Source of the DNA: Blasia pusilla
Lineage: Eukaryota
Direction: 5' to 3'
DNA length: 64,000 nucleotides
NCBI GenBank assembly: GCA_050084515.1
Contig: CM114271.1
Location: 31,062,001 to 31,126,000 of the forward strand
Part shown: one piece after another, positions 9,461 to 62,303 of the stretch
How positions within the stretch are numbered: position 1 is the first letter of the stretch
Layout of the letters: each line of letters starts with the position of its first letter
Notes under the pieces: generated by a model
What the model was told of the DNA's origin: nothing
The model's database searches: none
What the model saw: the letters and a program-made list of their open reading frames with translations, nothing else
Position numbers and translations under genes: made by a program

Positions 9461-9469
9461 CATGCTAGC

Positions 9470-9612: not shown

Positions 9613-9780
9613 GAGAGGTAGATGACTTGATCTTTGCATGATATGGAGGATGTGCGACTAACGATGGGGCAACCTAGCACCCGGCCTTCGATTTGCACCC
9701 AAGAAGGTGTATAGCATGTAGTAGATGTATAGGGCTACTTGGGAGTTAGAAGGACCTAACCGCCAGTTAGGGGGGCGAGT

Positions 9781-9884
9781 TGTGGTACACTTGTGTTTGT
9801 GGATGCTCTCGTGTATATTATGTATGTATGTGAGTATGGTATGTCAACGATGTATGTTGTATGACGATGTGGATTCGCACGACA
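9781..9884 (+). repeat. 3' terminal 'B' repeat of copy 1
   Basis: TG...CA segment directly after the PPT. Its 3' part (GATGTATGTTGT...CGCACGACA) matches the B repeats at 47243-47378, 47862-47997 and 58127-58262. Confidence 0.8.
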
Positions 9885-39362: not shown

Positions 39363-40311
39363 TGTCATACGCATACAGATTGCTACACAATATATATTGT
39401 TGTCACCGAATACACATACAAGATAGTATACTGACTCATGACATCGAGACGATTGAACACCAAAATATCTCCAATTAAATCAAAATCTCTCACAATGTCC
39501 TCACAAATCCATCTATCTCTCATTTCAAACCAAACTTATTTTCCTAATGAGAGCTTTGGGTTACTCACAAGGCAAGGAGAACCATAGTTCCGCCGCCTCA
39601 TGCCAAGAGGTTTAACAAAGAGACAGTGAGAACCAAAGTTCTTTTTCCTTGGGTATACCCCATGGTTACACAAAACCGGACAAGTCCTTCCTTAGGACAG
39701 ACGTGGATGGGTAAGTCCGGATATGTCCACAAACATGGATTCCAAGAGGTAGGACCCACACTTATAGTCCATGATGGAAGGCAAGGCAAGGATGAGTGGA
39801 GCAATGAGGGAGGAAGGAGTGGAGGTGGAAGGAGGAAGAAACGGTGGAGTATGGAACACGAAGGCAAGTAAGGGGAAGGAGAAAGAAGGGAAAGTTGAGG
39901 CCCATATGGACAAGTCCTTCCATAGGACGGACATAAGTCCACCGACATGGACATGTCCACGGATACAGACTTTGTCCACATGCGACCTTGGTATACCCCC
40001 TTCCATCTCCTAAGCTCTCTCCTTGGTAACCTATGCTTGCAAGTCACCTTCTTGGTTCTTGACTTGTTGTAGGGAGTCAAGGGCCACTTACAAAAGTAGA
40101 AATTCCACTCTACTCATAACGATAACTTGCTCAAAATAGTAATTTTCTTTATGGTAACCTATAGCTCCAATGAGCCGAAACGAAGGGGAAACTTGCTCTC
40201 TTAGGTTACTCGAGGCCGCAACAAGTTATCCTCAACCTCATGAGGATGTTCTCCAATATCTTTGAAGGTGCTCTATTATAAACTCATTTATGCATCCTAA
40301 AAGACGTAACA
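39363..40311 (-). mobile_element. Solo A-B unit with 4-bp TSD (TCTT)
   Basis: TCTT|TGTCATACGC...GACGTAACA|TCTT. It interrupts the RT sequence GAGGAGATCTTTGAT. The minus-strand 5' end is A-like and the 3' end is B-like. Confidence 0.85.
39661..39990 (+). mobile_element. hAT-type MITE with 8-bp TSD GTATACCC
   Basis: GTATACCC|CATGGTTACA...TGCGACCTTG|GTATACCC. Absent from the homologous A repeat near 18300. Confidence 0.85.
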
Positions 40312-40968
40312 TCTTTGATATGCTATGGAATACAAAGTACTTTAGATCTTTATGTTGGCTCTTATAATCTTCCTATAAAGGTGGTGGACATGGAGAAGAT
40401 AAAATTTTGGGGGACATATTGGTTTGGGAGAGATTTTTTATACTAGTGACGATTCTTACCATTTGAGTTGAAGAACATCTTGTAGAATTCTAGAGGGTTA
40501 TGGATAGGACTTTGGCTAGCTTGAAGGATGTACAATGTTACATATATAACATTATCATTTTCAGTTCTATGGTTGAAGAGGATAAGTTACACTTGGAGGA
40601 GGTGTTTTGATGATTGTTGTTAGTATATGGATTAAAGCTATATGGAGGCAAGTGTAGATTTTTGGAGGAGAAAATTGAGTACTTAGGACACACATATACC
40701 AATTTGCGTAATGTGTTCAATATGAGAAGGAAGATGCTATTGCACAAATCAGAGTTGAGTCCGAGCATTTTTAGGATTGGAAAACTTCTATTGACGGCAT
40801 GTCAAGGATTTTAGTGTGATTGCAAAGTTTCAATCTAATCTTGTTGATGAGACTTCATTGAGCATGGCATTGAGGAGAAGATTAGGAGTGAGCCTTTCAA
40901 GAGCTCAATGATAGGCTGATGTCCTCATCTATTCTACAAGAACCTATTTGGGTTATCCATTCTAGGTA

Positions 40969-41894
40969 CTTGTAAGGCACCCGTGCGATGCACGGAGAAA
41001 AAAAAGTTTGAAGAGTTTTTGTTAGTGAGGGGATTAATGATGTTGCACACAAATTCAAACTTTTTTCTTCTTGCCCATAACATGTGAAACATTTTTTCTT
41101 GTCCAATTACCACATGTCAATAGGGCCTCAAAAAAATGTGTCAATAATAGTTTTTTAAATTTTATTTAATTTCAAATTTAAGTATAATTTCTACTTTTTT
41201 AAATCTTAAAAGAGTATGAAAAATTCACCTTTAAATAACACCAATCTCCCATAAATAATTTCAATCCTCCGTAAAAGCTCAAACAATAACTCTTCTTCCC
41301 CTTCCACTCTTCCCACCAAAATAACATTCACTAACCAAAATCTTAGTTAATTTTAATTAACGAAATCATTTTCCTTTTCCATTCAAATTCATTTTCCTTT
41401 CCCAAAATATCATATGTGAATTAATACGATTATTTTTAAAAATTATCATGTTATTTGTTTCAAACTTTTAAATATGATTTCTATTTTATAAAATCTTAGA
41501 AGAGTAATAACATTTCACTATTCTTAGTAATTACAATCCTCCATTCAAATTTAAATGATATCCCAAAACTCGAAGTAATTTTATCTTTCCATAAAATTTA
41601 AACAAAATCTACTCCTCCATTAAATTATTATTATTTTTCCATCAAATATGAATTGAGGTAAAAATTCTAAAAATTTGGTTATTTATCATAATTATTACAT
41701 TTTTAAATATTTATAATCACCCATTATAATATTAAATTGAATATTAATTTATTAATATATGTTCGACTCAAATCCCTATTTTTTCTTTGTTTGATTGTTC
41801 CAAGGCAATAAAATTCAAGGATGTTGCCTATTTTGTCTTATTGTCCGATTATCTTGTCGTATTATGCATATGTGATCGCCAATTATTATATAGA
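40969..41894 (-). mobile_element. Non-autonomous Helitron (926 bp)
   Basis: The minus strand starts A|TCTATATAATAA and ends with hairpin CCGTGC-ATC-GCACGG, then CAAG|T. No TSD. Removing it restores the RNase H sequence (CCATTC.....A/TATAC..ATT.GAGCATGTTGGG). Confidence 0.8.
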
Positions 41895-43520
41895 TATACA
41901 AATTAGAGCATGTTGGGAGTAATTACTTAGAGAGATGACTAGTAGAGGGATTTTTTTGTGGCTTATGTCATTAGATAAAACAACATTGCATAGAAAATGC
42001 ACATCTCCTATAAGTGCATGGTTGTGATGTGGTCGGTAACACATTTAAGTTGCTATCTACTCGAAAAATCCTTTCACGCTCATCACTAATCATCAACCGG
42101 TGAGGTGGTTAATTGAATCTAACAAGGTTAGGGAATCTTATTGGATGGACTCTATTACTACAAGAGTGAAATTTCTAGGTGGTTCATAGGCTAGGTTGGC
42201 TTAAGCATGATACAGATGGATTAATTTGTAACTTGTGCCCAAGTTAGAGAGACAATACACGAGCTTAATGTCACGGAGAGAGTGACAAGAAGATGGTGCT
42301 TGGTTGGCACATATTTTCTGGGTGTTGGGGGATGGTAGAGTATGTGTGGTTCCTCATCCTTCCTAGCGAGCACGTATTGTACGATATATCCATGAGGAGT
42401 TGGGGAATTTGGAGTCAAGCATACTTACAACTTATTTTAAGTTCAATATTGGTGGTGTGAGCCATGTGCATGCATACCAAAGTTCAATAGTTTGTAGCCA
42501 AATATATGGTGTGTTATTGAGTGCAAGCATCCTTTAATGCTCCCACTCCATTATTACGTCCTTTGCCGATCATGAGATTAGGCTCTTGGTGGAGTTTGGA
42601 CTTCGCATAATCTTTTTCATTGATAAGGCCCTATCATAAGTACATGATGGTTGTGGTGGAAAATTTTTCCAAGTGGAGAGAGTTGGTGAGAGTACCAAAC
42701 AAGGCAAGCAAGGGATTGCGTACTTATTTAGAATGGTGCACCGGTGTAGGCCCTGACTCACTAGGGTACCAAGTTTTAGGTCTTCATATATCACCATACC
42801 ACCTTTAGTGATTATCTTGAGGCGAATGGGTTGGTGAAGCAAGTGATACAGATGGTGAAGACAATAAAGAGGAGTATGTAAGTATGGCTTGTAGTGGGAC
42901 TATTTGTGGGAGTGAGACCTATAGTTTCTATGGTTGTCTATGGGATATTGCTTTAGGCAAAAGGCATCTTGCGCGTCATTTTTGCTAGAATTTTTGCTCT
43001 ATGAGAGCCAAATTTGGCTGCAACTATTTGGCTTGGTAGAGGTGTTGGATCTTGATAACTCGATATCATGGGTACGAGCATGTTCATAGAGGAAGGAGAA
43101 TTTTTATAGAGTTATGCATGGCATTTTAGAATTTAGCAATTACTAAGCATAAGGATACATTTAAGTATGCAATCATTTGTGGAGGAGTTTATGGTCAAGG
43201 GATTAGAAAGTCCCTTTCTAAAGATTATGTATATTTACAACAGACGACATCTGTGACCCTAAATGTTACTACAAGAATTATAATTTTGTGTGTGTATGAG
43301 GTGTTACCTATTGGAATCCTCATGTTGGAGGGACAAGATGCATGGTATGTTTTGGAAGGATCATATTATGCAAAACTATGTGCCATGCCATCTTTCGAGT
43401 GAGGACAAGAGAATTGATTTGAGCTTGACAATGGTAACAATGGGCTTGAGATGTATGTTGTGTGGATTTGCAAGGAATGCAACCACTATGTTGGTGTGTG
43501 ATGGTTATTCTAAAGGGTCA

Positions 43521-44856
43521 TGTATGAATACCCTCTCTTGAAACGGTTTCCATGGGACGATGATTATATCCCAGATGAAATCGACATTTGAGAGAGTATA
43601 TACATCTGAGGATCTACTCTCTCGAACGTTGATTTCATGCAATGCGGAAGCTTGCGTTCAGTACATCACACTCACACTACTGACTTGCACCCAAATAGAC
43701 TTAAATAAGTCTCGTTTTGAGTCCATCAACCTTACATCTTCTTGAGTTCCTAACTCAGGCTATCCATCAAGCTCAAAAGTTACTAACCCCTCACTTCCCA
43801 ACACAAGAAAGTCTTTCTAGGCTTGGGAAAAAAAATCCCAGATAGTCCATGCAAGGCACCTAAAACAACGCTCATGCGGTTTCAACTATCCACAGAACCT
43901 CAAATGAGTCTCTAACCAAGACCCAAGATATGAGTCACGGATGGAGATCCACGGTTGACATCCATAATTCGCTCTCTTGGACTTGGCTTTGGGGTGTTTT
44001 GGGATCCACACCCTGAAGCCAACCTTCCAATCCATTCCATACCCTTGGTTTGTCTTGTGGCTTCCCAAAGTAGAGCTCACCTTCCAAGCATCCTTGGAGA
44101 CCCTCCCCTTTATATATAGTTCTAGAGATCTCCACTCCTCCCCAACTTTGGGAAATTCCTCTTCAATTTGCATATCATTCCTCCCACTTGCATCCTTCCT
44201 ATGGAAGGACTTGTCCATATGGGCTCCACCTTCCTCTTCTTTCTCATTCCTCCCACTTGCATTTCTGTTCCATACTCCCTCGTTTCTTCCTCCCTCCACC
44301 TCCACTTTCATCATCCTTGTTGCTCCAGTTGCCCTTGACCTGCCTTCCATCATGAACTGTAAGTGTGGATCCCATCTCTTGCAATCCAAGTTTTTGGACA
44401 TGTCCAAAATTTTTCCTCCATGTCCATCATAGGGAGAGACTTGTCCGTTTTTGAGCAACCGTCTTGGGCCGCTCGTTTAATTTGGCCCTTAACGAAAAAC
44501 TATAATTCTGATAGTTTAGGGATAACTCCTCAATCTTTGCTTATGCCTAGCTTTGTCTACATCCTTAGTGCATCGGAATCATCTTTACATAAGCTTTCCA
44601 ATGCCATCTTATGCATCCCAAAATCACCCTGGGTGTAATCGTTATGATCTTAAACACAACAAAACCTCAAACGCTAGTAAAGTTCCAAATCTTGTTCTAA
44701 CCCCCCTTGGCAACCCACTCTTATTAGACTTGAATTCTTCTCTAGTCTTGCTTCACATCTGGTTTTGGTTTATTGGGTCATGACCATCATCACTTGAAAC
44801 GCCCAATCTTGCTCGCGTCTCATACCTCGTGTCTCATTCAAGAGACGTTTCATACA
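43521..44856. mobile_element. TG...CA element with an imperfect inverted terminus of about 20 bp (solo LTR or MITE), containing a hAT-MITE fragment
   Basis: TGTATGAATACCCTCTCTTGAA ... TTCAAGAGACGTTTCATACA. It interrupts the PHD region. About 44170-44460 matches the MITE at 39661 in reverse. No TSD seen. Confidence 0.55.
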
Positions 44857-45789: not shown

Positions 45790-47140
45790 AAAAAATGGGA
45801 GTTGGAGTGAGATATATGCACGCTTTACCCCAAACTTCCCCAACTCCTTAAGGGCATGTTACACCAATCCTACTCTATGCAAAGGATGAAAGGATGAGGC
45901 GTCACTTGCACTCAACCATCCTCCCACACTCACAAAATATTTGTCTCCTCCCACTTGAGTTATATAGCTTGTTATAGGATTTGATTAGGCTCGTTGGCAC
46001 TAGCCCTACGCATTAGGAACATAGCTTGCAACCCGCTATGCTACTAGCTAGTGCATAAGTACTCCAAGACTACCCCATCCTTGGGGATATCTCGACCATT
46101 TTTTACCTCATTACCAGCCATTGGATCTAGGGACTCTCCATCAATTGAGTATGATCAGCGTTCTATTGGTCTCTCTGAACCAACTCATATGTCTCCCCTC
46201 TTGATCAATACTCGTTAGTATTCAAAATTATGCTAAGCACTAAGTTGTATGGATGCCATCTCTTGGTGTACTTGCATCACATGCCAAGAAGTCTCTCTTG
46301 ATTAGCTCTAATCTCTAGGTCTCCACTCACAGTGCCCTTACCTCGTGCATGTACTTTCTTTGTAGGGATCGATGAGGCTCACTAGTGCCTTGGAGGTAAT
46401 ACAACTCACTCACATCTAATGATTGACGTTCTCAACCATCCCTAGAATATTTATCTTGTCACATAATTTAGGTGCATTGCATGACCAAGTACATGTTATT
46501 GAGATGCCTCTATCTTTTTGTATGTGGGAAATTCCATTGTCCACTCTTGGTCATTAGCCTTGGGCTCCACCAATTTCTATCCGTGATCATCCTAACTTAA
46601 GCCAAGGCCACCCTCCTTACAAGCATAAGAGGTGGGAAAACTCATAATTGTGGGGAGTGTAAGTCACTAAGGGTTGATCATTGTACCTTAATGCCTGCAA
46701 CCAACGTCCCACATCCAAAATCAAATCCATAAATTTTTTTTAGGGATGATCTACTTAATTATTCCCTCCTCAATACCTCATGTGCCATCAAGTTTGTCCA
46801 CGAGAGTCATGAACAATGTGCACGCAATTCTACACTCGATGCATCCAACAACCTTGCCATTCAAATCCATGCACAAACATAGTGTACACTCTTCATCATA
46901 GGTGATTTAGATTCACCCAAAAAAGAGAAATTGTAAATAATGCATGGTGGAGAATGATGTCGAAACATTTGCACCATCTCTTAAAACAATTTGGACCTAG
47001 AGTCTCCTAAGCCAATAATTTGTCCAACACAAGATTGACCATGACATGGCCAACCTCCAATAGATCAACAAATGAATGTTTCCTATCTAATCTAATTCCT
47101 ATGCCCCAACATTGAGATGTCCCTCGATACAACACGAGGC
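45790..47140 (-). pseudogene. Highly decayed third DNMT-bearing Gypsy-like fragment (DNMT plus integrase piece)
   Basis: The minus strand reads GGWPCHGQS, LLDASSVELRAH..LSWTNL, LPTIMSFPTSYA..EGG, LVEPKANDQE.TMEF, and near 45850 HALKELGKFGVKR. Confidence 0.7.
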
Positions 47141-47242
47141 TTAGTTGAGGCAATGATGATTATGATAGCCCATAAAAACATACAGTGCATGGGCTCCTCT
47201 CGAACATCAACAATAGGTTTCGACGCACTTGTTCCTCCCATT

Positions 47243-49497
47243 TATCGTGCGCATACACATTGCTACACAACACACATCGCTGGTCACATCCACACCACAC
47301 AACACCGATCTTCCCCACACACGGGTAGATCCATACATCTACAAAAATCAACTCATACATATACATCGAGATCACACAACAAAAATAAGAGTAGTAAACA
47401 ACGGCACATCCAGCCTAAAACTCCATTCCTCAATCTACATTGGCATATTGAGCCTTGTCCACCCTATGCTCTCAGGAAATCCAGACGCTAGCACCGTGGT
47501 CCTATCTCACACACAACAAGAGAGGTGCTTCAACGGCCCAACATTAGAAAGATGGCTTTCCCAAGCCATCTTCCTCCCTTATATAGGGTTGGAAAGATCC
47601 AAAAGGCTCTTCCCCTAAAAATAGCTATCCTCCTTGTAACCTACGCCCATAGGTTACCAGGGGCGGGTGACTTGCTCAACATGTGACCCGGCTGTGAAAG
47701 ACCTCAATAGGAAAGTTGGCAGAAATGACATTCTTGACACAACAGACCTATCCTCAACCTCTTCCGACACCTAGGGACAAAGTTACACTCAAGATAGTTT
47801 GTTGGCTCCTATGCCCTATCCACCATAGATCTCGGCCTATCGACTACTTAGATGTGACAGCTGTCGTGCGCATACACATTGCTACACAACATACATTGCT
47901 AGTCATATCCACACCACAAAATATCGATCGTCCCTACACACGGGTAGATCCACATATGTACAGAAATCAACTCATACATATACCTCGAGATCACACAACC
48001 GCCCCCCTAATTGGCAGTTGGATCCCTCTAACTCCAAATAGAAAATATCATATCTCCCTAACATGACCTACTATCCTACACACATCTTGGACATATCCAT
48101 TGTCCCATGGGAACTACATCAAGAGGGGGAAGGGATCAGACATGATATATGCCACCCTCGAGAATAACCATCACATACCAACATGGTGGCTGCATCCCTC
48201 CCAAATTCGCATAACATACACCTCAAGCCTGTAGGTACCATTGCCAAGCTCGGATCCACTGTCCCGTCCACATTCAAAAGGTGACATCGCGCACAGTTGC
48301 GCACATGATCCTTCCAAACCATACCATCCCGTCCCTCCAACATGAGGACTTCGGTCGGTAATACCTTGCGCACACGTAGGATCGTGCGCTATGGATCGTG
48401 CGCCATGCAGTGACATCTAGCATCGTTGGTGCCGCTTGCTATAAATACACGTAATCTCCATGATGAAACCTCCTAATCCCTCGACGATAACCTCCTCCAT
48501 GAATGGTCGCGTCCCTCAATGTATCCCTATGCTGAGCAATAGCTAAATTCTCAAAGGCCACGGGCATATATAGCTCTACAAAAAATCATCTCCGCCCTCT
48601 GAGAACATGCTTGTACCCACACATGGGGATCGTCAAGATCTAACACCTCCACCATGTCACGTTGAATAACTGCAGGTAAATATGGCTCTCTCCCAAAGAG
48701 CAAAAAGTATGGTGAAAATGACGCCAAGGATGCCTGCCGACTAAAGCGATAACCCATAGCCAACCATGGAAACTATAGGTCCCACTCCCTAAACTTTCCC
48801 TGCTGCAAACAATACTTGCGCAATCCTCTCTTCACCGTCTGTACTACTCTCTCCGCCAACCCATCTGCCTCACAATGATCTATGGATGTGGTGCGATGAT
48901 CTATGAGCGCTGATCATTCAAGGCCTGAAACTTCCCCCTGAACTCGGTACCTTGGTCAGTCAACACCTCCGCCGGTGCACCAAATTGACGAAGCACACGA
49001 TCTAGAAATGCATAAGTTGTTCCCTCGCTTGCCTTGTCCGGTAGTGCCACCAACTCTATGCACTTGGAGAAATGCTCCACCATGACCAACATGTATCTGT
49101 GTTGACGCCCCGTCAATGGCAAAGGTCCCGTGAAGTCTAAACTCCACCGATAACCTAAACCCATAATCGAAAAAGGATGTAATTGGGGAGTGGGAGCATT
49201 GAAGGATGCTCGCACTCGATCACATACCATACATCTGGCCACAAACTGATGTACCCCAATATGCATGCCGTGCCACCAATACTGAACTTGGAGTACGCTT
49301 TACTCCAAAATGCTCCAACTCCTCATGAGCATGTTGCACTACACGTGCTTGTTGAGAAGGATGAGGTACCACTTATATCCTACCATCTTCCCATATCCGC
49401 AAAATATGAGTCCCCTCCCACCTGAACCTCCTAGCTCTTTGTAGGATCCAATCCCCCTCTCTAACACTCATTGTGCTCGCTATGACGCCATAGGATA
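47243..49497 (-). mobile_element. 3' part of a Gypsy-like copy: IN-PHD-PPT-B1-GC-A2-B2
   Basis: Integrase/PHD ORFs at 48119-49497, PPT TTAGGGGGGCGG at 47999-48010, B1 47862-47997, spacer GC at 47860-47861, A2 47381-47859, B2 47243-47378. Confidence 0.9.
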
Positions 49498-49857
49498 AAT
49501 GGTTAGAGATTTTGCCTGCAGCTCTTCCAACTCCCGTTTCCCTTCCAACTCTCTCCATTTTGAAGATAGACTCCGAGATTTACCCTTTGATGTGAAGAGA
49601 AATATCTTCATGCGGGTTAGGCCGATCTCTTTATTTGAGAGGATTTCCAACTTACCATTAGCATGCAAATTGAAGATATGCGACTTTGCAAGCATGCATT
49701 TCTTGGAGTGACACTGGGCAGATCGCGCAGCTAGTTGGCAGTTCCATGCATGCACTAGACATCTTTACGTTAGATGGTTAGATTTTGTTATGGTGCATGA
49801 GGATTGCTACTCCATTCTTGCATGGTTGATGTTAGGGGTGGCTCGGATTATCAATAT

Positions 49858-50334
49858 TGTCACATCTGAGTAGCCGATAGGCCGAGATCTATCGTGGATA
49901 GGGCGTAGGAGCCAGCGGACTATCTTGAGTGTAACTTTGTCCCACGGTGTCGGATGAGGTTGAGGATATGTCCATTGTGTCAGGAACATTGTTTCTGACA
50001 ACTTTCATGTTGAGGTCTTTTACAGCCGGGTGACTTGTTGACCAGGTCACCCGCCCCTGGTAACCTGTGCGTGCAGGTTACCAAGGGGAGGGCTATTTTT
50101 AGGGAAAGAGCCTTTTGGCTCTTCCCAATCCTATATAAGAGAGGAAGATGGCTTTCCTAAGCCATCTTTCTCATGTTGGGTTGTTGCACCTCCCTTGTAT
50201 GTGTGTGAGCTAGGACTAGGGTGCTAGCGTCCGGATTCCTTGATAGCACAGGATGGACGAGACTCGATATGCCAATGTAGATTGAGGAGTGGAGTTTTAG
50301 GCCGGGTGTGCCATTTTTACTACTCTTTATTTTT
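49858..50334 (+). repeat. 5' terminal 'A1' repeat with TATA box and hairpins
   Basis: Matches the reverse complement of 47381-47859 along its length. TATATAA at 50132-50138. Confidence 0.88.
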
Positions 50335-51489
50335 ACATGAGAAAGATGTCAGGGGGCTGGTGGGAATTCGTTGTTTGCAGGTAGGCAAGCGAGTTGCCTT
50401 GGTCGGGCGCCCCAGGAGACGCGTGTGTTGCGGGTGTTTTTCATTTTTATGTTCGGAAGGCCGTGGGCGGAAGCGATGTCCGTTTTTCTCAGATTTTGCT
50501 GGTACGGATTGACGCGAGACAACAGCCGAGTGTAGTGTGTGGTGGAGCGACGGGTGTATGTGAGTGAGGGTGTCGAGAGAGAGAAGAAAAGAGAGCGACG
50601 GCGCGCATGGCGGACGGAGCAGCAGCGGCGGCGGGCGGCGGGCGGCGCGCCCCCTCCCCCTCCCCGCCTCTTCCCCCAAGGTGGGAGGCACGCATAGGAC
50701 CGTGCGCCCCCCCTCTCTCCTCTCTCCTTCCGCAGGCAGGCACGCAGGGAGGCCACGGGCCGGACGGCCCCCCCCCCCCTCCAACGTGGTAGGACGGAGT
50801 AGGGTCGATCGGTGTGCAGTTGTAGCGAACGTGGTAGGACGGACGAGGTCGGTCCGGTGAACGCGGTTGCGCATGGGCAACGTGATGGCAGGGAGGATGT
50901 CGATGTGGTGAGTGACTGACATAGTTGGACGGCGGGCGTGACATGATGTTTTGGGGCACGAGAGGACGTTGCGAGAGTTGACGATGGAGGGGCAGCGTGC
51001 ACGATGTTGACGGGTTGTCCGCATCTGTTGACGGGAGGATCGACGTGTTGGTCGAAGAGAGTGTTGTGTTGCGGAGGTTGTCATATCATGTAGAGGAGTG
51101 CATGTTGACGGTGCAGCAGGTTGGAGGGCGTGATTAGGTTATCCATTCAAGTTCCTTTTCCCGCACTTGTCGTGTGTGATTGAGAGTGCTAGGTATCGGG
51201 TAGTAGCTGGTGCTAGGTGGGTGCAGTGATGGTGACGAGTGTAGATTCTTTTCATGTATAGCATGTTGGTGGATATACGGCGGTTGCCGAGTAGGGGTCG
51301 CATGTATGACCTGAGAGAGTGTCGCTAGGTTAGGTGAGTCAGTTGGGAGGCTCATGGTGAGCCCAAGTGTTGAGCGTGCGTGAGGCCGGGTATGTCATCA
51401 CGGGATTGATGTTAGCATAGGTGAGCTAGTGAGGCGTGTGGGAGACTCTCGGTGAGTCTGAGTGCTTGAGCGGGTGAGACAGGGTTTGT

Positions 51490-54102
51490 CATCACGGCGT
51501 TCTTTCAGGGTTCGGAAGAACGGGGTAGTGAGAGTAGTAGTAGTGGTGTGACACGGAGCGGAGTGAGATACTGAGGGGTTACCAGTGAGGAGCTACCTCG
51601 ACATCCATCCGTGGCTGGATCGTCATCACTGGACACTGGGTCTGGTGACGAGATCACAGACAGAGACAATAGTACTTGGCAAGAGCTCGACGACATGGGC
51701 CACCGGGGCATGCGTCGTTTCTCGGATGCAGTGGGCACCATCCACTCAGATGATTTTATCTAGGAGTTCAAAAAATGGTGCGACTTCCAGGAGATACAGA
51801 CCCACCCCGACACGATTCAACCCTTTCATGGCATGGAAGGGGTTGTTCCAGCACTTGGAGGGTCCTCCGATGGATGACTATATAGAGTTTCGATCAATAT
51901 ATTCAGTAGAGATCGATGCCTGGAGGATGTATTGGGCTCCAGGGTATGTGTCCACTAGTGGTCGTGAGGCATATGATGGGATTGTGAGAGGAGAGAGACC
52001 CACACCATCAGCCCGGAGACTAGATGGAGAGGAGGGCAGTGAGACAGGCGATGTGGCAGAGACCTCTGGTGGTAGAGGGCCACCCAGCTTCAGCCCCACA
52101 GTGGAGTTCTTCCGAAAGTTGGGGAAGAGCTACCAGAGCATACGCACCGAGAAGCTGAAGAGTCTACAGGATTTTCAGTGACGATCGGGTGAGAGTCTGA
52201 GAGAGGCATTCACACGCATGAGGAGGCTGATCATTGCTACGTTTGGAGTGAATGAGGCGCAGTGAGTCCAGTATTGATACGCGGTTTTGGACCGAGAACT
52301 ACAGAGGAGAGTCCGAGATGCGGTGCTGATTCACACAGCGAAGCCCACATTGAAGGTGGTCTCTGAGCGTATTGAGCTCAACATGAGTGAGGAGTAGGTA
52401 GTGACCGCTGGATTTTCTCGAGAGTTGACAGGTCCACAAGCGACGGTGACCCCACAGGTGCCACAGCGAGCACTTGTACCACGGGAGCGGGCCAGTGTGC
52501 CTAGAGAGCAGGGCGGGTACCGTGAGCCTATGAGGCAACGACCCACACCTACATATGTTGCCCAGCAGGGACCGATGTGGTCTTGTTGGACGTGTGGAGG
52601 GGCCCACACATCCAACAAGACCATAGGCAGAGAGACTGCCCACAGCATGGGAGAGGACCACCAGCGCCTACGATTGCTCAGGGGCCATAGAGGATGGCCC
52701 CACCACAGTACCAATGTGACCATTGCCACAGATATGGTCACACTAGGGATAGATGTTTTGACCTTCGCCGGGGGCATGTCGAGGTAGGCCGAGGGCCTGG
52801 GGGGCGTCGTCTGGAGGAGGTCGGGGAGTTCTTCCTGGGGCGTGGTGGTAGAGGACCACCACCAGCCAGAGGAGATGGAGCACAAGCACGGAGCGGCACT
52901 TCTCTCACGCATCAATCGGTTGGAGCGGAGGATTGCTGCCATGCGATGATGCGGCTTAGGAATGCACGGAGCTCTGGCGACTAGTGTGACTCAACTTCTA
53001 CCTCTTACCCCGACCGGGTGAGGATCTCTTGATATGGGATTTATGTGTAGTGCAGCCCAGGTTGAGGTGCAATGGTGACTCGGGAGTCTTTGCGAGAGGC
53101 ACCGAGCCATGGAGAGGTGGAGTTGAGATTGACCCACCAGAGGGGACCGATGGGCGGCAGGCTAGGGTTCCACAGTCGTTCACATTATCGGAGGCACTAC
53201 ACACACCATCGATGGTGCCTCGACGACCAGCGGTGCCTACAATTCAGGCACCTACGTCGACGTCACGAGGAGTTGGAGTGACAACTCCTATGCCGGCTCG
53301 AGTGGAGTCAGTTTTGACCATATTGTTGGAGGTGGCCACCAGAGTGAGTCACACTCCACTATTTTCCGCCATAGAGTTGGCGACGTTGGGAGTTGGACCA
53401 GCTGAGGTTGGCCGCCACGTTGTGTGAGCGTGGAGAGATGACTGCTTCTTGTTCAGAGGTAGTTGAGGAGGTGGTGGACTTGCCCTCAGAGCCGGTGCTT
53501 GGGACGTTCCCCATAGAGTTATGGCATGCGGCGGCGGCGAAGTTGATAGATATGCTAGCTCGACCGACCATAGAGCGAGCAGTGGTGACACATGGAGTAG
53601 TGTTACTGGATAACCGAGCTGGAGTATTTCGCTTGGTTAGTCCGACGGGGACAGTATACCACCCGCAACGCGTCCTACTTGATTCGAGAGCGCAACCCTT
53701 GATGTTAGGGAAGGCGGCGTGTTAAGCGTTGGGGTTACGGAAGGCCGACATTGAGCCTTGTCCCATCCAGATACAGACCTCGATTGGGGGCGTATCACCC
53801 ACTCAGTATATGACTCGCAGAGATAGTTGTCGAGTCAGCGAGCATCGACGGATAGTGCTATGGTGCGCACACGTGCGATTACGACACCAGCTGAGTCATA
53901 CGATGTGTTGGTGGGGAGAATAGTGTTATATCCCCTAGGATTCATCCTTGACTTCTGGGAGGGGACCGTTGCTTATCGGCCAGGATGGCGGTCACGTGAC
54001 GGTCGGATGAGTCAGTTACTGGTGCAGTTTGCGAGACGAGGTGGTCGATCACGAGGCGAGTCTGTGACCACGTTGGCAGCTTTCACAGGTAGTGTTAGCT
54101 AG
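51490..54102 (+). pseudogene. Gag (two zinc knuckles) and protease of copy 2
   Basis: EKLKSLQDFQ, CWTCGGAH, CDHCHRYGHTRDRC and VLLDSRAQPLM. Confidence 0.82.
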
Positions 54103-54393
54103 CCAGGAGAGTTGTTGGAGGGGAACGCACATGCGGAGGATGTCCCAATAGCGGATAGTCCCACGGAGAGACAGGCCATGGCGGGTGTCTCTTCCCATGT
54201 TGGCGAGGCCTCTTCACCATTGTGGGGTACGACTTGGGAGCTACAGAGGAGTGCCGACGACCTCGTGAGGCAGGCGTGGAGTCATGTTTTTATCCTAGAG
54301 CAGCGAGAGTCACGTGGCGATCGAGCTCTTGGAGTGGAGACGTTGACCCCACTAGATACCACACCTCTTGTGTGGCACTGCCCAGAGGAGGGT

Positions 54394-55350
54394 GTTAGGG
54401 TGTTAGATCTCTTTGGAGGGATTAGCACCGGATTGGCTGCACTATTGCAAGCGGGCATACGGGTGCATCAGTACCTTTATGTGGAGAGAGATGAGACTGC
54501 GCGGCGAGTATCATTACGTCACGTGGCGAGATTGGTCCAGAGGTATCCTGAGTTGTTGTCGGTATCTCTGATGCAAGGGGATACCAAAGATACGCTACCC
54601 GCCGACATCTCTTTGGTGGGGGCGCAAGATCTGGATAGAGTTGGCACCATTCATTTGGTGATTGCTGGATGGCCATGTCAGGGTCATTCATCAACTGGCC
54701 GAGGATTTGGATTGCAGGATCTGAGGTCAAGGATGTTTTGGGAGATGTTGCGAGTATTACGACATTTGCAGGAGAGTCAGATATGTTCTCCAGCATACAT
54801 TTTGGAGAACGTGCCGTTGTTGGGAGACACTCGTGCACGTGTGATGACGAGTGTACATCAGGTGAGGTCTTGGTTGGGACCTGATGTGTTGTTAGATGCA
54901 GGGAGAGTTGGGTCACGTGCCCATCGTCCACGACTGTGGTGGACGAACCTCATACCATCAGAGGTATTGAGTCGAGCATACGGTGGAGTCCAGAGAGCAC
55001 CACATCTCACAATGGATGCTATTTTGGTCTCAGGGCGTCGATCTCAGGTGGTGACAGGTGGTGACACGGGATGATAGACCACCGTTGGCCATGGCCAATA
55101 GGGTGGGGGAGTTGAGGGCAGCCTTACCTACGTTGGTGAGCTTCCCATCATCCCATGCCTTTCGTCAGGGAGGGCCAGGCATGATTTGGGATGAGGTGAC
55201 CGGAGCATTGGAGGAACCTACAACAGATGAATGCGAGCGCGCCATGGGGTTCACTACCGGTACTCTGGCGGTGCCAGGGATGACTGAGGCATCACGGAGA
55301 GAGGTGTTGGGGTAGGCGATGGACCTCAACTGTCTCACATGGATAGTCAG
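54394..55350 (+). pseudogene. DNMT3-like C5 cytosine methyltransferase domain (copy 2)
   Basis: VLDLFGGISTG, YVERD, ADI, AGWPCQGHS, ILENVP, RAHRPRLWWTNL, ECERAMGF and VLG*AMDL. Confidence 0.93.
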
Positions 55351-55759
55351 CCTAGGTATGGCTGAGCAGAGACGGATGCGAGTGTCATCCATGCCGTCAC
55401 GTCCACGAGTTGGACCATTGCCTACAGGGTTTGTACAGGCATTGGATGGGGGCGAGACGAGGAGAGATAGGCACCCATGGACTTCCTGGGACGTCGTTCG
55501 AGCAGAGAGTGCGAAGGCGGCTAGAGTAGCACATGTTCATTTTTCGGATGTGGAGCATGGTGTAGGAGGTCAGAGTGGAGTGGCTGTTGCGGAGATGGCT
55601 AGGGTTGCTACATAGCAACCAAAGCCGGAGGTTGCGTCCTCTTCGAGTGAGGTCACGATGGAGACTTGGGAGCCTGTGATAGGTCTCAAGTTGATAGGAG
55701 GAGAGTGATGGCGAGTTCATAGGTTTCTGAGAGGGCATGTCAGTTGTTTTTCCTTCAGT

Positions 55760-58124
55760 ATGAGAGACTTGGGTACGCTGAAGGGTCCCGGGATACGGAT
55801 TGAGTTGGCTAGTGATACGCCGATCTTTCGTCGACCCTACAGGTATTCTGATATGGAACAAGCCTTGATTCAGAGCAGGAGTCAGGACTTGTGGAGTTAT
55901 CACATGAGGAGTATGCATCTGCCACAGTCATGCAGGCGAAGAAGGATATGTATGGCAATTGGACGGATAGGCGGATGGGTGGAGATTACCGTCCTATCAA
56001 CCGACAAACGAGGTCAGATCGGTACACCATGCCTACTCCTGAGGAGATCTTTGATGCGGTAGGGCAGGCAAAGATCTTCAGTACTTTAGATCTCCATGCT
56101 GGCTATCATCAACTTCCTATCAGGTTGGAGGACAGGGAGAAGACAACATTCTAGGGGATAGATCGGTTCGGGAGAGATTGCTTGTATCAGTGGCGGTTCT
56201 TACCATTTGGGTTGAAGAACGCACCTGTAGAGTTTCAGAGAGTGATGGATAGGATTATGGCTGGCTTGGATTTTGTACGATGTTACATAGATGATATTCT
56301 TATCTTCAGGTCCACGATTGAGGAGCATGAGCGACACTTGGAGGAGGTGTTTCGGCGATTGCAGTTACATGGACTGAAGTTACATCCATGCAAGTGCAGA
56401 TTCTTTCAGGAGCAGATTGAGTACTTGGCACACACCATATACCCGAGTGGGTTAGGCGTTCAGCAGACGAAGGTAGAGGCTATTGCGCAGATTCCACGCC
56501 CTACAGATGTGAGTCGAGTCCGAGCATTTCTTGGAATGGCAAACTTCTATCGACGGTATGTCAAGGGTTTTAGTGCGATCGCAAAGTCTTTGACCTTGTT
56601 GACGAGACTTGATCAGGTGTGGTTGTGGGGAGATGATTAGGAGCGAGCATTTCAGGAGCTCAAGGACAGGTTGACGTCTTCACCCATTTTATAGAGACCG
56701 GTTAGGGGTCGCCCATTCCGATTACATACGGATTGGAGCATGTTGGGTCTAGGAGCAGTGCTTACTCACAGGGATGACGAGGAGAGGGAGTTCATTGTGG
56801 CTTATGCGAGCCGATCAAACAACATTGCAGAGGCGAAGTACAGCTCCTACAAGGGAGAGTGCTTGGTTGCAGTGTGGGCCGTGGCACATTTTAGGTGCTA
56901 TTTATTCGGCAATCCTTTCACACTTATCACTGATCATCAGCCGTTGAGGTGGTTGATGGAGTCCGACAAGCTTAGGGGAAAGCTTGCCAGGTGGGCTCTA
57001 TTACTACAAGAGTATGAGTTTGAGGTGGTTCATAGGCAAGGTCGGCTGAACCAGGATGCGGATGGATTGAGTTGTAACCCATGTCCGAGTCAGAGAGACG
57101 ACACAGGAGCTCGATGGCACGGAGAGAGTGATGAGGAGATGGTGCCGGGTTGGCATGCATCTACCTATCTTTGTTGGTTGACTATAGCATGTCAACCACA
57201 GGTGATGACTCCTGTGGTGGGGTTGGATGATGAGTCTTTGGATCCGGAGGTTAGTGAGGAGGCGACAGGTGGTCGTGATATCCATGACGACGTGGAGGTT
57301 GTGGAGTTCTTGCCCACTGGCGTCATTGCGAGTATAGTGAGTGCTAGGGAGCGGAATCGGATCCTACAGAGAGCCAAGAGGTTCAGGTGGGAGGGGACTC
57401 ACATTTTGCGGGTATGGGGAGATGGTAGGATACGAGTGGTACCTCATCCTTCCCAGCGAGCACGTGTAGTGCGACATGCCCATGAGGAGTTGGGACATTT
57501 CGGAGTAAAGCGTTTTACTTACTCCAGGTTGATATTGGTGGCGCGGCATGCATAGTGGGGTACAATGTTTGTGGCGGATGTATGGTATGTGACAGAGTGC
57601 GAGCATTCTTCAATGCTCCCACTCCGCAGTTACATCCTTTGCCGATTATGGGTTTAGGTTATCGGTAGAGTTTAGACTTTGCGGGACCTTTGCCATTAAC
57701 AGGGCGTCATCATAGGTACGTGTTGGTCATGGTGGAGCATTTCTCCAAGTGGATATAGTTGGTGGCACTACCAGACAAGGAGAGCGAGGGAACAGCTTAT
57801 GCGTTTCTAGATCGTGTGCTTAGCCACTTTGGTGCATCGACGAAGGTGTTGATTGACCAGGGTACCGAGTTCAGGGGAGAGTTTCACGCCTTGTGTGATC
57901 AGGCGCTGATAGATCACCGCACCACGTCCAGAGATCATCTTGAGGCGGATGGGTTGGCGGAGAGAGTGGTACAGACGGTGAAGAGAGGATTGCGCAAGTA
58001 TGGCTTGTTGCGGGGACAGTTGAGGGAGTGGGACCTACAGTTGCCATGGTTGGCTATGGGTTATCGCTTTAGTCGGCAGGCATCCTTGGCATCATTTTCA
58101 CCGTACTTTTTGCTCTTTGGGAGA
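55760..58124 (+). pseudogene. RT, RNase H and integrase of copy 2
   Basis: DYRPIN, LDLHAGYHQ, LPFGLKNAP, YIDDILI, TDHQPL, HEELGHFG, DQGTEF and DGLAERVVQTVK. Confidence 0.93.
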
Positions 58125-58126
58125 GT

Positions 58127-58262
58127 TGTGTGATCTCCATGTATATGGATGAGTTGATTTTTGTACATGTGTGGATCGACCCGTGTGTGGGGAAGATCGG
58201 TGTTGTGTGGTGTAGATGTGACGAGCGATGTATGTTGTGTAGCGATATGTATGCGCACAACA
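58127..58262 (+). repeat. 3' terminal 'B' repeat of copy 2 (136 bp)
   Basis: Highly similar to the reverse complements of 47862-47997 and 47243-47378. Confidence 0.9.
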
Positions 58263-58747
58263 ATATTCATCTTTGTCATGATCATCAAGGTTTTTTGGTT
58301 GGTGAGGACCACTTTCCTCATGTGAGGAAAGTTGTGTTGATGGTATGGGAGGCTATTTCCTTCTCTAGATCTCAACCATCTGTGTAGCTTCGCTTTGAAT
58401 ACTGTGATTTTCCAGTGGGTTTATTTATGCCACATAGGATTTGTGGAGGACTAGCCAACCCTAAAGAACGTTTGAGAGGCATATTTTGCCTATGTTGCGG
58501 AGGTGTGTGTTGTGGACCTGTATGGTGGCGACAGGGCTGGCATTAGGATTTGCTCGAGAGATGACTCTAGGAGGCCTAATTTTGCATGCATGTAGACAAT
58601 GAGTTTGAGTGGATTTTGATTTCAATTGCTCAACAATTTTAGGATGATGGGAGACTTGTGGATGTGTAAGTTTTTCTGTCTCCCTGTATGGTTTATGCAT
58701 ATTGTATGGATGATGGCTGACATTTTCTTTTCCCATTTCCATGTGTT

Positions 58748-61700
58748 GTGACAGATTTAATGATAAAAACTACCATCAATATGTCCCATAAGATTAAGCT
58801 AGTGTTACTTCCAATAATAGGGGTTGACAGAACTCAGCCCCTAATGATTTATGCCTTCAAGGATGGAGACACATCAGAGACTATGAGGGATAAAGTAACA
58901 AAGTCTAAAAAGTGGAGAGATGTGAATTTCAACTTTTGGGACAAAAGAATACCTGGGGTTTTGGATAAGGATATGGAGGACTGTTACATATTAGAAGACA
59001 TGGGGGATGAAGTACATGTCATTGACGATTAAACTAACAGGGTTCTGGTCAATGGTGACATTGAGGACTCTAGGCGTAAGAAGAGGACATACAATACATG
59101 GGACTCTAATTTAATGATGGAGGAGTCCATTCATGTAGAGGACTCTATGGCTGCCAGTTCTAGAGGATCTAACACTGCTCCTTCAAGCTCTAGTGGGCCT
59201 AGTGGGCTAGGGGGGGAGGGGGACCTAGTGCAATCCATGTTGATATAGGACAACTAACTAATGAACAAGTGGTAGATGTTGTTGAAGTTAAAGGAACTTG
59301 GACTTCAACACTGATGAAACCCTTTTATACATTCTATTGGAAGAGCAAAACAAGAGGGCTCGATAGTTTAATGAAGGATTTGAAATTAGACCATCATAGG
59401 TGGTCTGTTCGTACCTTTGACAAGCATGGGGAACCTCAAGGCAGATTTATTTGTGAGGAATGTGTTGAGGAGTATGGTACTGCTGATGGGTCAGAGGATA
59501 AGAAGTGTATAGAGAATACCTTCAATAATTGGAGAAAGCATATACTGACAGTTCAACATGAGAGACGGTGGGCTGAGAGGAATAATTGTCTAGTCACAAA
59601 AAAACCAAGTTTCAAATGAGGGGCCTCAGCCTCTTGAGCCTAGATTAGTAGTGGAGGATGGACTTCTTATCATGCAGGAAGTAAACCAGAACTGTGGTCT
59701 CCTTAAATCTCCATATATGCATTGGAGTGGAGACCTTAATGTAGAGCTTGTTGTAGCTTTTAAGTTCAAAGCTCAATGTGTATAGTGTAAAGAGACCATT
59801 CACTTGGCCCCTGCTCATAGAAACCTGAAGACAAACTTGGAGCAACACTTGACTAGTAAGTATCACTTGCGAGGTGTAGAAATAAGCCAGGCTAATGCGA
59901 GGGCACCTTTGAGGACTGGGTCGGTAGGATGACCTCTAAAAACAGTTGACAGGGATACTAGACCCAACAATGCCCTTGACAAGTGGTTGATCAAGACTTC
60001 AAGACAAGGTGGATCTCAACGTGAAGGGGATGGCTCAGGTGGGCCTTCTCACAATGAAAACCTAGATGATTTGACATTATCTCAATTATGTTGGGGGTAT
60101 TGGAGAGATACAGTAGAGTACAAAGGCATTCATAAAGAGGTGAAGGCATTGTTACATGACCAGAAGGGTGGAAAGACCTGGGAAGCAGATGGTAGGGTTA
60201 GAAAGAGGGTTTTTAACCCTACTTCTTTGTCTTGGGTTGACATTAGAGGATTATTCCGATCTATTCATTGTCTATATGTTTCAAGACTAGGAGGTGGTTT
60301 CAAGCACTTGACTTGTGATGAGTGCTTCAACCTGACAAAGGAGGGGGATTTCAGGATGAGAGTTGCTAGGGAAGACAAGACTGGTACTCAACGAGGGACA
60401 AGGTCAAGGCTGATGCGCATAAGGCTGGACTATCTTACAAAGTCTGAACTTCGAATGCAAGCTCGAACTTATGCTGAAGAGAGGAGGTCATTACATTTAC
60501 TGAATTTCAGTTTGAGAATGAGGGTATGTGCACTTGGAACAAAGAAACACAAACTAGATGTCCTACTAGACCAAGCAGCTGGTAGGAAGGATTTGTTCGG
60601 ATTCCTTCGGAATATCATAGAAGCCCATAAGAGTCAAGCATTTGGAGGACGTGAAGCTTTATGGGATTTTCTACAAGATATGGGAAAAAACCTAAATAGG
60701 AAGGAGAGAGGATGTAGGTATTCTCAAAGAACTAAAGCTATACCTTAGGCTTTACTAAAGTTTGGTGGAAGACCTGTAGCCCATTGTTTTGCATTGAACC
60801 TCATGGGTCCAAGCTTGAAGACACCGAAAAGAGCAAGAACTAAATTTTCCACCTTCAGATACGGCATTCAACCTGAGATTTTTGCTGAAGTGGGAAGGAT
60901 ATTGAATGCAAAAAAATATGATCGAATATTATTGGGGATATCCCCGTGATATTTGCTGAAAATGAAACCAGAGTTAAAAGTCGAGTGAGGTAAATTTGAA
61001 TTAAGTGCTATTGAATTTCTTTGTATATTTCTTGTTTTAGCATGCATGGGACATTTTCACGATGCTTAACTTACAGAATTGATTTGGCTACTCCTTGATT
61101 GTGGCAGGTGGGACTCCAAGTGGGACACTCTGGTGGGGTTTTGTGGCCCAATTGAAGATCACATATGTTCAATGGGATTAGAAGTCTTAGTCGGGGAGGG
61201 TGACGAGGGTTATGAGAAGATTATGTCAACTTTTGAGAGTCAGCGGATTGGTATATATGGTAGTGTTATTATCGTGAATCCTTTGCATGAAAATTTGCCT
61301 AAACTAGTTATTTGTGCTACTTGCACATGTAATAGCTTTACCTCACACTGGGTAAGAAAGCAATGGGAAGAGATGAAAAAAATGTGGGATATACATAGTA
61401 GGGCAAAAGTAGGCCCTGTATTAGGTCATGCCTCCGACGATGATGCACGGAGACGAAAGCTTATGCTAGAGGATTATATGGGCAGAGGTTCATATGGAGG
61501 GCTATGCCGTATACAGTTGGATTGGGAAGCATGGGGGTTCACTGTCCATGAATTCCCTAATGGGGATCGTGGGGGGGGTTAGGTGATCAAGATCCTCCCC
61601 ATTGTGGGAAGAAATTGTTGAATCCGCTGGATCGAGCAAACCACCCGATAAAGTTAGGTCCTTACATTGCTTCGTTGGAACATGTACAGAAGGTTTTTCA

Positions 61701-62303
61701 TCTCTATCCCCACAAGAAACACAAGCTCAATTATGATGATACAACTAGGAGGGATAGAAAAAATTGGGGTTCTGGCCAAAGGGTTGCTAGCAGGGACGTG
61801 CAAGCTTGTTTGTATGACTTGCAAACAAGAAGGGATGAAGCACAAGAGAGGACCTTGGGAACTATTGTGTATCTCCCCATATGTGGAGATTACATAGATG
61901 TTTTTTATTCCCACAATTTTGTGAAGCATGATTTGTGGACAAGGATCATGCTTTGCTCTAAAATCACTTCATTCCTACGGTTATGGAGGTTGTGGTTGAA
62001 ATTACGCACTGATATATATAGTGAGAAGAATATGATTAGTATACAACCATTCCATGATGGGCATTGTCATGTCATTTTGCTATTCAACTAATTTGTCTTT
62101 TTCAAGATAAATATCCATTGGTCCCTGTCCCTCTTCATCTAACAGGGTCTGATTGTTTTGAGATATTCTTTTCCAAAGTTGGAGGGATGGCAGGTCATGT
62201 TGCAAGTGCTAACATGTCCCTCTTCATCTAACAGGGTCTGATTGTTGTGAGATATTCTTTTCCAAAGTTGGAGGGATGGCGGGTCATGTTGCAAGTGCCA
62301 ATC
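58748..62303 (+). pseudogene. P-element/THAP9-like DDE transposase relic with N-terminal zinc fingers and one intron
   Basis: AENETRV (first D region), GHASDDD, DQDPPHCGKKLLN (DxxH..K..N), RDRKN and GSDCFEIFFS. Zinc-finger-like CEEC...KHILTVQH. A GT-AG intron at 60990-61107 splices in-frame to SRVRWD. Confidence 0.6.
62126..62303 (+). repeat. Tandem duplication, 89-bp period
   Basis: TGTCCCTCTTCATCTAACAGGGTCTGATTG...GTTGCAAGTGC at 62126 and 62215. Confidence 0.9.

Follow-up and report, generated by a model that had tools for sequence, protein, structure and literature searches.

DNA methylation normally silences transposons, and transposons that encode methyltransferases of their own are thus puzzling. 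So far, transposon-borne DNA methyltransferases (DNMTs) are on record from dinoflagellates and one charophyte alga alone, and none of these hosts is easy to manipulate. The first-pass annotation of the DNA analyzed here had cited a paper for such retrotransposons in dinoflagellates and a charophyte, and the text of that paper does report them (de Mendoza et al. 2018, PMC5890265). Two of its elements are the closest described systems. In the gypsy-type element KnitGypsy-Dnmt3 of Klebsormidium nitens, the polyprotein includes a non-rearranged DNMT3-like domain, for which the ratio of nonsynonymous to synonymous divergence (dN/dS) is under 0.2. The legends of Fig. 1e and 4c give this element an A-coding-B-A-B arrangement of repeats, which is the arrangement described for DIRS elements (PMC5890265). 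SymbioDIRS-Dnmt3 of Symbiodinium has a DNMT3-like domain in its Pol polyprotein, A-coding-B-A-B repeats, and a tyrosine recombinase, and its domain was shown to carry out de novo CG methylation in yeast (PMC5890265). Passages in a 2025 paper and a 2026 preprint mention DNMT3 in retrotransposons of "streptophytes" generally.

We analyzed a 64,000-nt window of DNA from Blasia pusilla (all coordinates are positions in this window). On its plus strand, at 49858 to 58262, lies a gypsy-type retroelement, here called copy 2, with a DNMT3-like domain between protease and reverse transcriptase (RT). We put the probability at about 75% that copy 2 is a dead member of a bryophyte Gypsy-DNMT3 family that is related to KnitGypsy-Dnmt3 and uses the mechanism proposed below. 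Both the domain and the family are identified with good support. The kind of element is already known from K. nitens (2018), and our results extend it from a freshwater alga and dinoflagellates to land plants.

A dead gypsy-type element with a methyltransferase between protease and RT

We found by Pfam and tblastn that the domains of copy 2 run in the order gag (CCHC), protease, DNMT, RT, RNase H, and integrase, all on the plus strand. The element lies between target-site duplications, ATAT at 49854 to 49857 directly before its 5' TG terminus and ATAT at 58263 to 58266 directly after its 3' CA terminus. It opens with a 477-bp long terminal repeat (LTR; "A") at 49858 to 50334, which starts with TGTCAC, holds the TATA-like CCTATATAAG, and is 85% identical to 47859 to 47381 on the minus strand, the 3' end of another copy (copy 3). 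The gag region, in several shifted frames, was placed at 51551 to 53014 by tblastn with P0144 and P0085, intact proteins of the first open reading frame (ORF1), and a pattern search found its CCHC zinc knuckle at 52715 to 52756. The protease region, also placed by tblastn, spans 53092 to 54102 and ends in an in-frame stop (54100 to 54102). Its active-site motif is LLDSR in copy 2 (53675 to 53689) and LLDSG in copy 1, the other full copy in the window; in the relatives P0437 and P0173, Asp_protease Pfam families match at the same position. A linker, the DNMT3-like cytosine-C5 methyltransferase domain (54403 to 55330), and the ORF1 tail occupy 54103 to 55615, and ORF1 ends with TAG CAA CCA (55613 to 55621), an exact UAG-CARYYA type I readthrough context. 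ORF2 continues with frameshifted RT and RNase H at 55622 to 57155 (RVT_1, 8.5e-23; RT_RNaseH, 1.1e-32; tblastn) and with integrase, comprising an H2C2 zinc domain and an rve core, at 57271 to 58124 (Pfam and self-comparison). A 138-bp short terminal repeat ("B") ending in ACA closes the element at 58125 to 58262, and no further long and short repeats follow it.

Copy 2 is a dead insertion of a bryophyte Ty3/gypsy-type family and is unable to function itself. ORF1 is frameshifted at least six times, the protease motif is mutated, the DNMT holds a frameshift and a stop, and the end of the integrase is deleted. About 690 bp that are present in copy 3 are missing from copy 2, with the integrase C terminus, a PHD finger, and the polypurine tract.

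The first-pass annotation had placed C5-methyltransferase motifs I, II, IV, VI, VIII, IX, and X between protease and RT, and we located all of them at 54403 to 55330, collinear and not circularly permuted. Five motifs share one frame (54403 to 54951): motif I (LDLFGGISTG, 54403 to 54432), motif II (YVERDE, 54478 to 54495), the catalytic motif IV, which is intact in copy 2 (GWPCQG, 54667 to 54684), motif VI (ENVP, 54805 to 54816), and motif VIII (RAHRPRLWWTNL, 54916 to 54951). Motif IX (ECERAMGF, 55229 to 55252) and motif X (VLG*AMDLN, 55304 to 55330) lie in the next frame (55229 to 55330). The frame shifts between motifs VIII and IX through a tandem duplication of 10 bp, CAGGTGGTGA twice at 55045 to 55064, and a stop codon lies inside motif X (55313 to 55315). 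From these motif coordinates, the span 54394 to 55350 is the DNMT domain.

The frame at 54103 to 55074 (323 aa, stop to stop) matches PF00145 with an E value of 9.4e-9 and 35.6 bits against a cutoff of 22, in line with the first identification as a C5 methyltransferase; the match spans profile positions 49 to 120 only. The annotation was right that the protease-side ORF (53827 to 54102) and the DNMT share a frame. It was wrong about the start of the DNMT frame, which opens at 54103 and not at 54112, and a single in-frame TAG (54100 to 54102), where intact relatives have Trp, separates the two. Nor is the domain intact in copy 2, in which the duplication and the motif X stop have broken it. An intact DNMT reading frame is absent from both copy 2 and copy 1, and intact forms exist in relatives. 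Across 32 relatives the motif spacing is constant (87 residues from I to IV, 44 from IV to VI, 40 from VI to VIII, and 98 from VIII to IX). All catalytic and S-adenosylmethionine (SAM)-binding motifs are conserved across the family, with PC, ENV, and an RxR-type motif VIII invariant or nearly so.

Similarity of the domain to DNMT3

A likeness to the DNMT3 catalytic domain had been noted from the letters of copy 2, and both sequence and structure searches agreed with it. Against PDB sequences, the single copy 2 ORF matched DNMT3A best (1.2e-9), with DRM2 at ~1e-3 and M.HhaI at 5e-3. A family profile built from ten members and searched against PDB sequences at E ≤ 0.01 matched 53 distinct sequences. 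The top 29 were DNMT3A/B/C (2.7e-18 to 1.7e-12), and they were followed by 6 DRM sequences (6.3e-11 to 1e-8) and then by 18 that were bacterial or DNMT2. The best values by type were 2.7e-18 for DNMT3A, 2.5e-16 for DNMT3B, 5.8e-16 for DNMT3C, and 5e-6 for HaeIII. Neither DNMT1 nor CMT (chromomethylase) matched the profile among PDB sequences at this threshold.

For the fold, we modeled the intact relative P0004 (80% identical to copy 1 and 69% to copy 2), not a broken window copy, with AlphaFold2 (AF2) and a 32-row alignment; the model had a predicted local distance difference test (pLDDT) value of 90.8. When it was searched against the PDB with Foldseek, the matches listed (ranks 1 to 48) were all DNMT3A/B/C, with a best E value of 9.5e-20 and a TM value of 0.84 on the target, and the predicted fold superposes on DNA-bound DNMT3A. 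By profile scores and predicted fold, the window domain thus appears closest to DNMT3 among characterized methyltransferases.

The canonical DNMT3A, 3B, and 3C proteins are the best sequence and fold matches, have the same motif order, and align with the family in motif VIII (AHRxRxxWxNL) and in motifs IX and X. DRM differs by its permuted motif order, as opposed to the unpermuted order I to X of the window family. Three points count against our main reading. The label "DNMT3-derived" rests on profile scores and fold rather than on a tree with named canonical DNMT3, DRM, and DNMT1 sequences. No PWWP or ADD domain was found by Pfam in the window ORFs or in intact ORF1 proteins, whereas canonical DNMT3 has PWWP and ADD; the family has neither reader and sits in a transposon polyprotein. 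Motif IV is PCQ here and PCN in DNMT3A in the printed alignment. In addition, the stretch from motif VIII to IX is ~98 residues in the window family and ~60 in DNMT3A.

Relatives in liverworts and mosses

Word-indexed searches at E ≤ 0.001 returned 81 proteins of 177 to 566 aa and 24 proteins of 567 to 2000 aa. The named relatives, at 50 to 70% identity, come from Marchantia polymorpha, M. paleacea, Calypogeia fissa, and several Sphagnum species. Two Marchantia proteins (P0091 and P0100) have DNMT, RVT_1, and RNaseH in that order by Pfam. Intact ORF1 proteins of 1280 to 1333 aa consist of gag, protease, and DNMT and end there (P0114, P0141, P0144, and P0145; also P0085 and P0090 from Marchantia). 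A further 129 metagenome stretches carry the arrangement. Because only one of 80 metagenome loci (L003) has frames of at least 600 aa, these loci were used for the junction, repeat, and dN/dS comparisons and not as intact references. In an exhaustive profile search, 9496 representatives passed E ≤ 1e-3, 1750 passed 1e-10, and 395 passed 1e-30. The 150 matches listed all had E values below 1e-56, and local domain probes sorted them into 17 of type A (DNMT between protease and RT, the window order), 79 of type B (RT-RNaseH-DNMT-integrase, with or without PHD), and 54 with DNMT alone.

The arrangement recurs in two divergent window copies, in named bryophyte proteins, and in 129 metagenome stretches, and therefore it is not due to chance. 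The suggestion that a land-plant-type genome hosts such a family thus stands, with relatives in both liverworts and mosses, and the domain is not confined to a few chimeric copies.

We also considered whether the DNMT-like stretch could be the pseudogene of a host DNMT3 or a single chimera beside a retrotransposon and no part of the element. Nothing speaks for this beyond the broken state of copy 2. The position between protease and RT is found in both full window copies and in Marchantia, Calypogeia, Sphagnum, and Klebsormidium proteins, it recurs in the metagenome stretches and in the 395 cluster representatives at E ≤ 1e-30, and in copy 2 the DNMT lies inside the 4-bp target duplications. 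Recurrence across copies, hosts, and metagenomes, together with these duplications, rules such an origin out, and we give it practically no chance.

A search with a type-B query returned 118 proteins, including KFL_009030040 (P0439) of K. nitens. Its order is that of type A: DNMT at residues 312 to 369, RVT_1 at 770 to 930, RNaseH at 974 to 1103, and integrase at 1235 to 1401. We built a maximum-likelihood tree of 101 DNMT domains, with 40 of type A, 36 unclassified, and 25 of type B picked randomly out of 184 (the other 159 are not in it). A split with 100/99 support separates 54 rows (all 40 of type A, including K. nitens, and 14 unclassified) from 47 rows that include no type A. The K. nitens protein is on the window's side of this split, with an uncertain position within that side. 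Both window copies fall with Marchantia, Calypogeia, and Sphagnum in a clade of 28 rows (100/99), in different subclades of it.

Judged from sequence, the liverwort and moss family is a relative of KnitGypsy-Dnmt3. The two share the order DNMT, RT, RNaseH, integrase, the same side of the tree, and the features listed above from PMC5890265. They differ in that the hosts here are liverworts and mosses, in a UAG/UAA-CARYY stop after the DNMT as against a continuous K. nitens protein model, and in a PHD finger after the integrase, which the partial K. nitens protein did not show. In the DNMT, identity to K. nitens does not exceed 46%. SymbioDIRS-Dnmt3 differs as well: where that element has its tyrosine recombinase (PMC5890265), the window family has a DDE integrase (rve), a gypsy-type RT-RNaseH, and 4-bp duplications.

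Beyond the split lies a larger sister group of gypsy-type elements with the order RT-RNaseH-DNMT-integrase-PHD (P0104, P0110, P0160, and ~180 others; 184 rows with a full DNMT domain), all from metagenome, Logan, or EukProt records. Its DNMT, RT, integrase, and C-terminal PHD finger are homologous to those of the window family, and it differs in the place of the DNMT, which follows RNase H and precedes integrase there but follows protease and precedes RT in the window family.

Apparently new are the conserved UAG-CARYYA stop at the end of ORF1, the presence of a PHD finger behind the integrase, and this sister group. In the literature we searched, no paper reports elements of this kind from liverworts or mosses; the supplements of the 2025 paper may list them.

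The junction of ORF1 and ORF2

Intact ORF1 proteins end exactly at an in-frame TAG of copy 1 (6488 to 6490), and RT follows in the same frame. The break between ORF1 and ORF2 thus lies after protease and DNMT, not after gag. Both window copies have an exact UAG-CARYYA at this point, TAG CAG CCA in copy 1 (6488 to 6496, plus strand) and TAG CAA CCA in copy 2. We surveyed 54 related loci in which the start of ORF2 could be placed. The codon before ORF2 is a stop in 53 of the 54 (TAG in 37 and TAA in 16; the remaining locus has TAC). CARYY follows that codon in 51/54 loci, with the exact CARYYA in 2/54. The 24 preceding codons, read in the ORF2 frame, give a conserved ORF1 tail in 52/54. In four sequences with a mean column identity of 62% otherwise, TAGCA.CC is invariant.

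UAG-CARYYA is the type I readthrough signal of plant viruses, for example in the tobamovirus replicase, as described in PMC5382211. The likeness to the viral cases extends to the polymerase part, which lies downstream in frame, and the difference is the retrotransposon setting. The conserved stop of ORF1 and the CARYYA context suggest stop-codon readthrough into RT-RNaseH-integrase.

Several results weigh against readthrough, and they bring in another explanation: the ORF1 stop could be a true terminator, with ORF2 (RT-RNaseH-integrase-PHD) translated apart, by reinitiation at a nearby ATG or from another transcript. An ATG stands two codons past the stop in copy 1 (TAG CAG CCA ATG) and in most loci, those of mosses typically reading TAG CAA CCC ATG. 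The sixth base of the motif is C rather than A in most loci, including most of the moss loci. RNAalifold found a weak fold downstream of the stop (-13.1 kcal/mol, with a covariation term of +0.42) and no covariation support. However, copy 2 and L003 keep TAG CAA CCA without the ATG and have AAG or GTG instead, and the TAGCA.CC core stays invariant in sequences that otherwise vary. ORF1 and ORF2 share a frame in 52 of the 54 loci, which separate initiation does not require. The lack of a covarying structure also loses force in light of the plant-virus examples of UAG-CARYYA given in PMC5382211, which need no downstream structure. We therefore consider separate translation of ORF2 unlikely and continue with readthrough as the preferred reading.

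A further point against readthrough comes from P0173 and the K. nitens model, in which DNMT passes into RT with no stop between them. P0173 and P0305, both ENA metagenome proteins, are distant type-A members that run from gag-CCHC to integrase in one continuous frame of 2188 to 2327 aa. Since these distant type-A proteins and K. nitens lack the stop, it looks like a feature of the bryophyte clade.

When Marchantia P0090 and P0091 were compared with window positions 6235 to 6539 by tblastn, the models that join DNMT to RT skipped ~60 to 100 residues around the ORF1 stop. The skip looks as if the gene predictor had placed an intron there, and thus a leaky stop may be hidden in existing annotation.

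Selection and transcription

We calculated dN/dS by the Nei-Gojobori method with codons aligned through the stored proteins. Between copies 1 and 2, the values were 0.144 for the DNMT (322 codons, pN 0.205, pS 0.668), 0.120 for RT-RNaseH, 0.164 for the protease, and 0.230 for gag. Between copy 1 and the metagenome locus L005, they were 0.172 for the DNMT, 0.167 for RT, and 0.313 for the protease. Purifying selection on the DNMT, one of the points raised with the original identification, is thus apparent. The values are rough because dS is near saturation (pS 0.67), which tells against leaning on them closely, and decay after insertion also raises the ratios. What can safely be concluded from these comparisons is that, during the divergence of the sublineages, constraint on the DNMT was about as strong as on RT.

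The family is transcribed at a low level, from sister copies. Sequencing runs with one species label contain the stretch as DNA, and among the contig records of run X1, 82,298 lie on 46300 to 58300 at a likeness of at least 95%. Three RNA-seq runs with the same species label gave 238, 246, and 215 reads at a likeness of at least 95% and 11, 22, and 18 at a likeness of at least 99%. Loose ends of RNA reads at 54653 and 54687 continue into copy-1-like DNMT sequence, and read joints from 50334 to 58125 and from 58262 to 49858 are the points at which, in complete copies, a long repeat passes into a short one and a short one into a long one, respectively. Over 51 to 58 kb, nearly every read pair has its first mate on the minus strand, a pattern that would mean sense RNA if these libraries follow the convention of most stranded ones. 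Most reads are 95 to 99% alike, and therefore the RNA comes from sister copies and is not shown for copy 2. These last two points limit what the reads say in favor of an active element.

Terminal repeats and the PHD finger

The full layout of the family, ~9.2 kb, is a long repeat, the coding region, and then short, long, and short repeats (A-coding-B-A-B). Among ten long metagenome loci examined, two (L057 and L020) have it complete, and two more have paired short repeats only. Copies 1 and 2 show only A-coding-B, and copy 3 supplies the short-long-short 3' end. The family lacks the two identical terminal LTRs of standard Ty3/gypsy elements; the repeats are split into long at one end and short-long-short at the other. 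The termini are TG...CA, and target duplications of 4 bp were found for copy 2 (ATAT), L057 (CATA), and L020 (TCTC). The simplest reading is that copy 2 lost its last long and short repeats by recombination between its two short repeats after insertion, because it keeps its target duplication.

A PHD-type zinc finger (CMLC...VCDG.SRGWH..C) follows the integrase of the family, in a region that aligns to the integrase-PHD part of relatives. By analogy with the chromodomains of chromoviruses, it may read histone tails for targeting.

A proposed role for the methyltransferase

In the active form of the family, ORF1 encodes gag (CCHC), an aspartic protease, and a C-terminal, non-rearranged DNMT3-like domain, followed by a conserved UAG or UAA and CAR-YY(A/C). 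ORF2, in the same frame, encodes RT, RNase H, integrase, and the PHD finger, and we propose that it is made by programmed stop-codon readthrough. If so, every Gag-protease precursor would carry a DNMT, and few of them would extend into RT and integrase. As many DNMT copies as Gag copies, or nearly so, would enter the particle, where the protease would cut the enzyme free, and it would methylate either the new cDNA of the element or DNA at the insertion site. This last step would extend the proposal of de Mendoza et al. that such elements methylate their own cDNA or insertion sites (PMC5890265). The PHD finger of the integrase may then steer insertion by reading histone tails.

The alternative is that the domain does not methylate the element's own DNA and acts instead on RNA, in trans on the DNA of the host or of rival transposons, or as a mere DNA- or chromatin-binding module. 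The only assay of a type-A relative points that way and against our proposal: the KnitGypsy-Dnmt3 domain gave no methylation in yeast, as reported in PMC5890265. However, this result carries little weight because human DNMT3B was likewise negative there. The same text raises RNA methylation for LINE-type elements. The missing PWWP and ADD readers and the PCQ in place of PCN would also fit a domain with another task. Against this, the family keeps its catalytic and SAM-binding motifs, the dN/dS of the DNMT is as low as that of RT, and the predicted fold is one that superposes on DNA-bound DNMT3A. We regard a domain without self-methylation as quite improbable, and self-methylation remains our preferred reading. 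The ratio of observed to expected CpG, which might have added to it, does not: it is 0.60 to 0.76 in the copies and 0.66 in the whole window. CpG depletion no different from that of the window says nothing about self-methylation.

A bolder version of the proposal is that the bryophyte elements, with the DNMT fused to Gag-protease and with RT and integrase placed behind a leaky UAG, would load each virus-like particle with hundreds to thousands of methyltransferase domains, methylating the cDNA before or at integration, and that the PHD finger would pick the chromatin. Together with the much larger sister group, they would then form an old and widespread superfamily that writes its own epigenetic state. 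We offer this as a tentative and rather doubtful extension.

The same kind of element that was known from hosts that resist manipulation is abundant and constrained in liverworts and mosses, with low-level transcription of sister copies. Every catalytic motif is present in protein models of the model liverwort Marchantia polymorpha, and therefore the question can be taken to a land plant that is open to genetics. The conserved UAG-CARYYA at the end of ORF1 makes a testable prediction about the amount of enzyme relative to RT and integrase, and the PHD finger makes one about the choice of insertion sites.

Other copies and repeats in the window

Comparison of the window with itself, to which tblastn added a DNMT remnant, gave two full copies (copies 1 and 2), three partial copies, and the one remnant. 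Copy 1 is on the plus strand at ~701 to 9884, with a 5' limit read from the sequence and thus approximate. Its DNMT motifs I to X (5306 to 6220, plus strand) are in a single frame with stops at 5483 to 5485 and 5579 to 5581, one of which lies inside motif IV (PC*G). Frameshifted traces of a PHD finger are at ~9400 to 9612, and the short repeat is at 9778 to 9884, both on the plus strand. The DNA of copies 1 and 2 is only 68 to 72% identical, and therefore the two belong to different sublineages. Copy 1 has a Ty1/copia element on both sides of it (535 to 700 and 9885 to 11504) and is thus nested within that element. The integrase frame of the copia element stops at ~700; copia RT (10117 to 10716) and RNase H (10833 to 11504) lie beyond the end of copy 1 at 9884. 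We looked for a clean target-site duplication around copy 1 and did not find one.

Copy 3 is 5' truncated and lies on the minus strand at 47242 to 49490. It retains integrase, a partial PHD finger, the polypurine tract, and the short-long-short repeats, at 47999 to 47862 (short), 47859 to 47381 (long), and 47380 to 47242 (short). Its PHD finger (48388 to 48119, minus strand) is a partial Pfam match with an E value of 0.0026, below the cutoff because the frame is cut. Just past the end of copy 3 is the DNMT remnant (46328 to 47136, minus strand), which is old and heavily decayed and belongs to the same bryophyte clade, with up to 48% amino acid identity. Copy 4 (39002 to 43577, plus strand) consists of RT, RNaseH, and integrase fragments split by other repeats and has no DNMT part.

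Directly 3' of copy 2, the region 58300 to 62100 has a G-over-C skew of 0.25, the same as copy 2, and is another repeat or a gene; its long frames are at 59203 to 59619, 59933 to 60748, 61070 to 61582, and 61561 to 62091. Elsewhere in the window, 24000 to 30000 is a GC-rich block (0.51 to 0.53) with a strong A-over-T skew, and within it an inverted repeat pairs 24968 to 25287 with 28754 to 28368 at 76% identity.

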